Origin: Eledone cirrhosa
Lineage: Eukaryota
Length of the DNA: 64,000 nucleotides
Direction: 5' to 3'
Assembly (NCBI GenBank): GCA_964016885.1
Contig: OZ024741.1
Coordinates: 69,502,001-69,566,000, forward strand
Under the pieces are notes generated by a model. That model worked only from the letters and a program-made list of their open reading frames with translations. It had not been told where the DNA came from and searched no databases. Numbering within the stretch: position 1 is the stretch's first letter; each line of letters starts with the position of its first letter. The translations under genes and the position numbers were made by a program. Positions 54,701 through 57,700 of this stretch are shown here, one piece after another.

Positions 54701-57700
54701 TATGCTACATCACATCATCATCATCATCATCATCATCAACGTCATCATTTTACGTCCGCTTTTCCCTGCTTGCAAGGATGGGACGGGAACTGATTCTGGC
54801 TTGATTTCTACAGCTGGATGCCTCTCCTAACACCAACCACATTTACAGTGAATGCTGGGTGCTTTTTTGCCGTGGCACCTCCACGACCACTTTGCAGTGG
54901 AATGATAGGGACCCCAGTCCCTATCATCTCATTTCTACAGCTGAGTAAACTGGAGCAATATGAAATAAAGTGTCTTGCTCAAGGAAACAACACATCACCC
55001 GGTCTGAGAATTGAACTCACAACCTTTCGATTGCAAGCCCAATGCTCTAACCACTAAGCCATGTGCCTCCATTGGTATACATTTGTTAACATCCCTTAAT
55101 GTTCTGAGTTCAAATTTCACCAAGATGGTCTTCACCCCTTCATTTTCCTGGTATCAATAACATAAGTACCAGTTATACACCGATTTGTTTTAATTAACTA
55201 TACACTCTCCCCTACAATATTTGTACTATTATAAGAAAACATTATTGCATCATAATATGTTGATAGTAGAAATTTAATAATCTCTCTAACTTTGTTTGTC
55301 TAGTTCTTTATCTGCCTATCTAATTTATGGCTGTCAGTTATTTCTCTCATCTATGTGTATCATCATCATCATCATTTCATTTTACGTCCGCTTTTTCCCT
55401 GCTTGCAAGGGTGGGACGGGAACTGATGCTGGCTTGATTTCTACAGCTGGATGCCCTTCCTAACACCAACCTCATTTACAGTGAGTTCTGGGTGCTTTTT
55501 TTCGTGGCACCTACACGACCACTTTACAGTGGAATGATAGGGACCCCAGTCCCTATCATCTCATTTCTACAGCTGAGTAAACTGGAGCAATGTGAAATAA
55601 AGTGTCTTGCTCAAGGAAACAACACATCACCCGGTCTGAGAATTGAACTCACAACCTTTCGATTGCAAGGCCAATGCTCTAACGACTAAGCCATGTGCCT
55701 CCATGTGTATATATATATATATATATATATATGTCCCACCCTTGCAAGCAGGGAAAAGCGGACGTATGATGATGATGATATATATATATATATATATATA
55801 TATATATATCACGCTGTAATGTGGCCGTGTAGGCAACACGGTAAAAACCTCCCAGACCCACACTGTAAATGTGGTTGGTGTTAGGAAGGGCATCCAACTG
55901 TAGAAAACCTGCCAGACAGTCCTATGCGAGCAAGAAAATCACTCTTGCCTCAAGTGGGACTACCCCCGTCCAAACCCATGCAAGCGTGGAACACGGACGT
56001 TAAACGTTGATGATGATGATATATATATGTATATATATATACAATATTAAATAAATGGAAAACTATATTTATAAAACCATATTTATTTCATTATATATAT
56101 TTCGGGGATATCATATTAACAATATGCTATGCCTTCATCAGACAAAATACAATATAAACAGTTTTATAGATAAATATATTCGACATACCGTAATAAACAT
56201 CGACTTCATTTGAAGAGGTTTACGCTAGCAGTCAAATGAACCTCTTCAAATGAAGTCGATGTTTATTACGGTATGTCGAATATATTTATCTATAAAACTG
56301 TTTATATTGTATTTTGTCTGATGAAGGCATAGCATATTGTTAATATGATATCCCCGAAATATATATAATGAAATAAATATGGTTTTATAAATATAGTTTT
56401 CCATTTATTTAATATTGTAAATATACTCCAAATATTTGTCGAGTGCTTTTATATCAGTTATAAATATTTACTAGTTGTAACCCAACAATTTTAAATATAA
56501 CTTTACATGTATATATATATATGTATATATATATATGTATATATATATATATATATGTATATATATATATATATATGTATATATATATATATGTATATAT
56601 ATATATGTATATATATATATGTATATATATATATATATATATGTATATATATATATGTATATATATATATATATATATGTATATATATATAAATTGAAAC
56701 AAAATGAAAACGAAATTTCATTTCTCACTCTTAGTATGGCACTTACTTAAATGTAAGTATGCATGTATACGTACATACATATATGTATACAGACGCACAG
56801 TAGCATGCACATATATATATATATATATACATATATACACACATATGCACACAGGTACACATACATATATGCACGTATCAGTTTAGCGGCGCTTATTATA
56901 ACGTCGCTTTGTTCGTTTGTAAACAAACTGAACAGCCTGAATTTATGCCATACGGTGTTAAGGCAACCACGTCACCTTTTTGTTCAACACTGACACAGGA
57001 ACGATGTACTAGTTTCAAGCTTGTTAGCTATCATCAGCACCGTTTACCCATCTGCCAGATAGTTGAACGTTCGAAAGTATATACTTTCCTTATGAAAACC
57101 AACGGCTGAGCAGCCTAATTTGCACATTGAGTGAGTTAAATCGGTCAGGCACACCGAAAACGATAAATTGAAACAAAACGAAAACGAAATTTCATTTCTC
57201 ACTCTTAGTATGGCACTTACTTAAATGTAAGCATGCATGTATACGTACATACATACATGTATACAGACGCACAGTAGCATGCACATATATATATATATAT
57301 ATACATATATACATACATATGCACACAGGTACACACACATATATGCACGTATCAGTTCAGCGGCGCTTATTATAACGTCGCTTTGTTCGTTTGTAAACAA
57401 ACTGAACAGCCTGAATTTATGCCATACGGTGTTAAGGCAACCACGTCACCCCTTTGTTCAACACTGACACAGGAACGATGTACTAGTTTCAAGCTTGTTA
57501 GCTATCATCAGCACCGTTTACCCATCTGCCAGATAGTCGAACGTTCGAAAGCATATACTTTCCTTATGAAAATTAACGGCTGAGCAGCCTAATTTGCATA
57601 TTGAGTGAGTTAAATCGGTCAGGCATACCGAAAACGATAAATTGAAACAAAATGAAAACGAAATTTCATTTCTCACTCTTAGTATGGCACTTACTTAAAT

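Follow-up and report, generated by a model that had tools for sequence, protein, structure and literature searches.

Non-LTR retrozymes of metazoans are tandem, low-GC, non-coding repeats in which each unit, about 150-450 bp long with a GC content below 45-50%, carries a type I hammerhead ribozyme (PMC7229834; PMC7761336; bioRxiv 10.64898/2026.07.22.740005). In the available portions of these papers, circular RNA (circRNA) is proposed to be turned into tandem cDNA by reverse transcription (RT) with Penelope-like elements (PLEs) as the likely mobiliser, multimeric RNA is recorded in axolotl, and RNA editing is named as a possible cause of circRNA heterogeneity; rolling copying figures there as a proposed model, with no description of edited genomic copies or higher-order periods, and the term ADAR does not occur in the available text of PMC7229834 or bioRxiv 10.64898/2026.07.22.740005. 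PLE insertions, according to the accessible part of their description, have inverted arms as a trait, together with 5′ truncation, partial tandems, an inverted 5′ copy and a (TA)n bias (bioRxiv 10.1101/2021.04.23.441226); the array described here resembles them in its 5′ truncation, partial tandem structure and (TA)n bias and in the inverted 5′ copy seen in its family, and differs from them in having no ORF. The closest analogue is the set of APOBEC fossils in vertebrate LTR retrotransposons, in which strand-biased, clustered hypermutation polarised against a consensus marks germ-line retrocopies. Those fossils are G>A changes left by deamination of cDNA and, in the part of that study available, are absent from the invertebrates screened (PMC4866542), whereas the changes reported here are A>G, appear to come from RNA and are phased. 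Pseudogenes derived from circRNA likewise record a circular RNA that was retrotransposed and inherited, but they stem from back-spliced RNAs and are recognised by the junction, and the available text on them mentions neither multi-round copies nor edits (PMC4897178).

The element class and the rolling-circle proposal are already known, and phased edit fossils as evidence appear to be new: in the open-access literature available we found no report of phased ADAR-edit fossils in retrozymes or other retroelements. Edits do enter DNA by RT in ADAR-hypermutated retroviral sequences and in retroprocessed edited plant mitochondrial genes, which are viral or organellar systems without a phased tandem read-out. 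As a template for retrozymes, circular RNA is proposed rather than demonstrated in the literature consulted, and private edits provide barcodes with which the proposal can be tested from genome sequence alone.

The array studied lies in a 64,000-nt stretch of the Eledone cirrhosa genome (assembly GCA_964016885.1, contig OZ024741.1, positions 69,502,001-69,566,000), referred to as the window, whose numbering is used throughout. It is a non-LTR retrozyme tandem array on the minus strand at 56689-60654 (3.97 kb), made up of 8.37 units of 474 bp with a higher-order period (AB) of 948 bp, so that it spans 4.18 dimers. Its GC content is 37-38%, and no ORF of at least 150 aa was found within the array body. 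(TA)n target sequence flanks it at 56507-56691 on the left and at 60655-60810 on the right, where the 5′-truncated end of the insertion lies. A type I hammerhead with an extended helix I maps to 56982-57068 on the minus strand (fold z=-2.9), its core (57007-57037, minus strand) consisting of CUGAUGA, a helix II of 4-5 bp, GAAA and a minimal palindromic helix III. We read this motif as a hammerhead from its core; a search against Rfam at the gathering threshold returned no hammerhead match in the window and only a tRNA-like SINE head. The core was detected in 8/8 full units with a fold consistent with a type I hammerhead, cleavage is predicted between 57007 and 57006 and recurs each 474 bp, and the invariance of the ribozyme across units, claimed in an earlier note on this DNA, holds for the core in this array.

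An exact search of the 3.0-Gb genome counted 10,391 copies of the 36-base family core, and marker copies of its two young sublineages number 1,792 and 4,517. With a hammerhead in every unit, low GC content, non-coding sequence and dispersed copies, the family has the traits of published retrozymes, although its 474-bp unit lies marginally above their 150-450 bp; the studied array is a young copy of this high-copy non-LTR retrozyme with a type I hammerhead. An unselected sample was drawn from the first matches listed on C1 for three exact markers, giving 84 loci with family matches, and indices are counted from the cleavage site along the RNA strand. The insertions share a fixed 3′ end at index 317 (56689-56695 here, minus strand), 156 nt upstream of the cleavage site, which is presumably the target-priming point: 64/88 3′ truncations fall at index 317, and 104/104 ends at this index abut a TA repeat. 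The 5′ ends are scattered, and inverted back-to-back arms occur at 52/84 loci, the studied locus being single-armed. The earlier note remarked that neither array end coincides with the cleavage site; the left end, which is the 3′ end of the RNA, is not arbitrary and marks the fixed priming point of the whole family. This insertion pattern is consistent with mobilisation of a non-LTR retrozyme by a Penelope-like RT. The family also co-occurs with PLEs: a search for GIY-YIG candidates gave 10,596, of which 150 were scored and 150/150 matched. Around 25 of these 150 loci (~3.3 kb each) we found no same-strand retrozyme homology that would point to a PLE partner, and one of the 25 had a diverged retrozyme copy beside it on the opposite strand, which is about the chance level. 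Hammerhead-like motifs near the GIY-YIG matches at L205, L213, L214 and L226 are candidate PLE terminal-repeat ribozymes. Relative to the young consensus, the older subfamilies at L042, L043, L046, L059 and L062 mostly have G for A and C for T, with some differences at adjacent positions (55/56, 328/329) that are perhaps compensatory.

Unit-by-unit comparison of the array gave exactly the 14 differences between units A and B reported before (unit-A coordinates 56705, 56758, 56782, 56840, 56862, 56884, 56977, 56978, 57064, 57078, 57099, 57100, 57125 and 57152). All 14 are T/C on the plus strand, that is A/G on the minus (hammerhead) strand, and there is no indel among them; judged by the spectrum of the 127 changes that are private to single units in unselected copies, the probability of 14/14 differences being A<->G is ~4e-9. 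Comparison of the array with itself at a period of 948 bp left a single internal mismatch, a plus-strand C>T at 58220 that is private to one unit and presumably arose after insertion, and the near-perfect repetition of AB is thereby borne out. When the monomers are cut at 57007|57006, one carries 11 of the alternating Gs and the other 3, as previously described. To these 14 sites, all of which stand, must be added two derived A>G changes common to both units, at 56796 and 56850 (minus strand), which raises the count to 16 sites and 18 Gs per dimer. Monomer X (57007-57480, minus strand) thus bears 13 derived A>G changes (11 specific, 2 shared) and monomer Y (57481-57954, minus strand) bears 5 (3 specific, 2 shared), each set returning every 948 bp, and the repeated changes of the array are A>G in 16/16 cases. 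The change at 56796 is recurrent, being found also in both monomers of L111 and in L120, and that at 56850 is found in every unit of L089. Since a single run of ~450 nt beginning upstream of the ribozyme would likewise take in 13 of the 14 alternating edits, the 11 + 3 split into two separately edited monomers is one reading of these data rather than a proven one.

The polarity of the changes was determined in 36 other arrays, a sample chosen partly by similarity to the studied array and therefore biased toward G. The ancestral base had been predicted to be A (T on the plus strand) and not C, and A was indeed the majority base at 14/14 sites, fixed or nearly fixed at 11 of them and present in 33/36 and 29/36 arrays at two others. 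The prediction is firm at these 13 sites; the last, 56840, is not firmly polarised, since it falls in a slippage tract and varies within the family (A in 19 and G in 14 of the 36 arrays). Genome-wide counts of exact 31-mer copies at 57125 gave 8,056 for the A allele and 14 for the G allele, and the doublet at 57099/57100 is private, with 4/4 matches lying within the studied array. Two DNA-level routes were rejected, CpG decay because CpG/TpG on the plus strand is found at only 2/14 sites and the polarity is opposite, and cytidine deamination of cDNA because it would yield sense-strand G>A, which the polarity excludes.

Copy-specific, periodic A>G sets, which the earlier note had suggested looking for elsewhere, were found in arrays of period 1, 2 and 3, and the studied array shares with them derived, clustered, sense-strand A>G changes, here in exact 948-bp phase. 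The A>G changes per template number 16 in the studied array, 12 in L111, 11 in L230, 9 in L032 and 5 each in L098, L120 and L142; all clustered loci except L098 were located via alleles of the studied array. L111 (C1:160.4 Mb), from a different sublineage, has 12 units of period 2 in which heavily and lightly edited monomers alternate. Its repeated changes are the 12 A>G plus one shared lineage G>A, its inverted arm bears 402G, and a further 2-nt difference between the two monomers lies in the TA tract. L171 is likewise of period 2, its two monomers differing by A>G alone, and L131 is of period 3, with three monomer types that show A>G-only differences and follow an identical cyclic order in both inverted arms. 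In L032 the nine changes are present in each internal unit of both arms and form a private haplotype (11/11 matches at <=2 mismatches), as do those in both arms of L098 (3/3 matches at <=2 mismatches). The changes in L230 come in addition to subfamily markers, nine of them in 7/7 units read and two in 6/7; those of L120 are confined to one microsatellite segment flanked by two unedited segments, and one of those in L142 falls in the catalytic core. A search with 224G gave 205 matches, mostly older subfamilies with G as a lineage variant, and L131 was the sole informative locus among 16 examined. Five other loci carry 28G+29G, L229 and L232 being too diverged to read, and a DNA search with the L032 stretch returned mostly microsatellite matches and was uninformative. 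The outermost minus-arm unit of L131 does not have the 407C>T that the other units share, and the last unit read in L230 does not have their 28G/29G; gene conversion or a template switch are candidate causes of these odd end units.

A mechanism consistent with these arrays would begin with incomplete self-cleavage of retrozyme transcripts, whose hammerhead has a minimal helix III, and with ligation of the products into circles of one, two or three units. Adenosines of these self-paired RNAs would be deaminated by ADAR, and an RT acting in trans, probably from a Penelope-like element, would prime on nicked (TA)n DNA at the fixed internal site, circle the template several times and read inosine as G. 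The same edits would then be copied at each pass, and the array period would record the size of the circle. At the studied locus, a 948-nt dimer with 13 + 5 inosines would have given ~4.2 copies in the germ line. We consider this whole sequence of events, in which edited monomer, dimer and trimer circles are copied into (TA)n by target-primed rolling-circle RT, likely, and the circularity of the template, taken by itself, somewhat likelier still. The earlier proposal of rolling RT on a circular dimer is supported by the A>G polarity, by the strand asymmetry and by the sister arrays; for the circle itself the argument comes from the sister loci, the studied locus having no inverted arm.

A-to-I editing is stochastic at each nucleotide, so that identical private sets in successive units mean either that one stretch of RNA was copied repeatedly or that DNA was amplified later. 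In the latter case the ADAR fossils would be real, but an uncleaved linear dimer would have been inserted once, after which unequal exchange or slippage would have multiplied AB in the DNA, 948 bp at a time. Turnover of this kind does occur in the family, as seen from variants other than A>G that are shared by alternate units in L107 (314T>G, 3/17), L031 (447T>C, 2/12) and L070 (453C>T, 3/19), from which it follows that periodicity alone is no proof of an RNA circle, and the single arm of the studied locus also suits such an origin. Against it, the period-3 order of L131 is identical in its two inverted arms, which we count for the circle, and private edits are common to the two arms in L032, L098 and L111. 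In L032, moreover, the terminal copy reads 311G, 312G and 316A whereas the 11 internal copies combine 311G and 312G with 316G, as would follow from a (TA)n primer that covers position 316 on the first pass only; and 3.97 kb of the studied array contain just one private change. We regard amplification in DNA as unlikely, with a small but appreciable probability at this single-armed locus, and prefer a circle copied several times. Partial higher-order periods marked by variants other than A>G and by TA-tract lengths were observed at L070/L180 (C1:69.58 Mb), L107 and L031. A 7-nt deletion adjoining the cleavage/ligation point is present in 5/5 full units of L099 (C1:184.44 Mb), which likewise speaks for a circle, and is possibly a ligation scar in a ribozyme-dead template that still spread.

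Strand asymmetry was examined in the unselected sample, from which 60/84 loci with young-type units were kept and 24 older-subfamily loci left out. Within these arrays the repeated changes comprised 18 A>G, 4 T>C and 9 others (n=31; p=0.001), the A>G and T>C falling at 16 vs 4 distinct sites and in 12 vs 4 loci, whereas the non-repeated changes comprised 22 A>G and 26 T>C (Fisher p=0.008 against repeated). The anticipated strand asymmetry is thus found in the repeated changes while private ones are symmetric, indicating that the asymmetry came with the template and that later mutation has been symmetric. Clusters of at least five changes were present in 1/60 of these loci. As a strand control we used T209, which lies beside A210 in a palindromic context and has changed to C in 35 copies at 9 loci: none of the 7/9 loci where the site was read had a T>C cluster, and A210>G was accompanied by A>G clusters at 2/12 other loci.

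These results bear on an origin of the array by retrocopying of a linear RNA, either a transcript of some parent array in whose DNA the G alleles were already present, or a multimer made by RNA-to-RNA rolling-circle replication and then reverse-transcribed in linear form. Lineage variants do pass between loci, such as 393A>G with 377del in L083 and L089 and the inherited 334G>A of L031, L111 and L183, and the Gs shared by X and Y at 56796 and 56850 could be inherited in this manner. Yet no parent array was found in the assembly, the edited haplotypes are private, 156G is present in none of the other readable 210G loci, and a parent array would require the same explanation itself; an antisense RNA stage, for its part, predicts T>C clusters and none were seen. 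Origin from a linear transcript or linear multimer is accordingly improbable, and the edited circle remains the preferred template.

Inosine is, to our knowledge, the sole source of pure sense-strand A>G clusters, and the neighbours of the changed adenosines were examined for an ADAR signature. The 5′ neighbours of the 14 alternating sites in the unedited context are U at nine, A at three, C at two and G at none, exactly as noted before; with a background of U58 A41 C27 G17 among 143 As, the zero for G has P ~0.17, which makes this pattern weak by itself. When edits were pooled over 8 loci (58 events at 41 sites), a 5′ G was found at 1/58 events vs 13% expected (p=0.009; p=0.02 at the site level) and a 5′ U at 34/58 (p=0.0009; p=0.03 at the site level). 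Depletion of 5′ G and preference for 5′ U constitute the conserved metazoan ADAR -1 rule, and at the 3′ neighbour, by a weaker and less conserved rule, G is weakly favoured and U disfavoured, according to the available part of bioRxiv 10.1101/2020.01.19.911685. The pooled edits showed no 3′ G preference (7/58 events vs a 14% background) and an enrichment of 3′ U (28/58 vs 34%). Edited As showed no excess of pairing over other As (0.65 vs 0.55, p=0.24) in the fold of the monomer, in which the whole circle is highly paired. Sites recurred across loci, indices 28/29, 210, 224, 328, 355 and 402 among them, in 22 pairs vs 10.4 expected over all As, a figure inflated by the way the clustered loci other than L098 were found, and against 5′-U sites only the recurrence was not significant. 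The genome does contain a deaminase exon of the ADAR2 type that retains the CHAE and PCGD motifs and shares 94% identity with Octopus vulgaris ADAR2. All in all, we hold it very probable that the A>G changes are due to ADAR editing.

The missing 3′ G preference and pairing enrichment speak for a non-ADAR origin, namely errors of RT or RNA polymerase, another RNA modification or deamination at the DNA level, and single repeated T>C changes also exist (the four of the unselected sample and the 209T>C lineage). Rolling RT, though, would confine each of its errors to a single unit, and all of the changes repeated along one template (16/16) are A>G; 5′ G is depleted, and polarity disposes of cDNA cytidine deamination as set out above. 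We hold a non-ADAR origin to be highly improbable, slightly more so than descent from a linear RNA. Hardly credible, finally, is an artefact of assembly or haplotype mixing, as several independent arrays, of period 1, 2 and 3, show private differences that are polarised by strand and confined to A>G, which mixing would not produce. Four contig sets aligned over 56884-57170 consist of fragments, none of which crosses the whole stretch.

Editing of circular templates by ADAR has a possible structural basis in an internal (UA)/(UG)/(CA) self-complementary tract at 56744-56878 (minus strand). The tract forms helices of 23-26 bp in the monomer vs an inter-monomer helix of 50 bp in the modelled unedited dimer circle, and this longer helix, predicted from a single minimum-energy fold, may explain why multimers would be edited well. 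An A>G at index 449 of L142 lies in the hammerhead catalytic core and another at index 459 of L111 in helix II, so that editing may disable copies. On balance we lean toward a broader view in which ADAR acts as a heritable, directional mutagen of this retroelement family: edited circles, including dimers and trimers as better substrates, would be written into germ-line DNA by rolling-circle target-primed RT, creating higher-order periods in one step, seeding lineages with A>G changes and leaving thousands of arrays as single-molecule records of germ-line editing and circle size. The period of an array would then report the size of the circle, and edits common to inverted arms would report that both primers copied one template. 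If the reading is true, a lineage known for heavy editing can pass A-to-I edits into its inherited nuclear DNA, editing occurs in cells feeding the germ line, and higher-order repeats can be born at insertion and not via slow recombination. The same screen is applicable to any animal genome with retrozymes.

Around the array, the window contains two long exon-like open frames on the plus strand, at 52909-53757 and 61002-61937, neither of which had a Pfam match. Their position on both sides implies that the array may lie in an intron, antisense to a host gene; the frames may resemble a KIF26-type motif. Immediately to the left of the array, at 56034-56425, is a near-perfect inverted repeat with 187-nt arms that are 99% complementary around an 18-nt spacer, which looks MITE-like or PLE-like, and the tRNA-like match at 55004-55061 (minus strand) is probably a SINE head. 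Broken remnants of LINE-type reverse transcriptases (Pfam RVT_1) are present at 29012-30870 (plus strand) and 44124-45617 (minus strand), and homogeneous minisatellites occupy 12945-16050 (74 bp x 42), 33449-36327 (23 bp x 125) and 48038-49210 (26 bp x 45).
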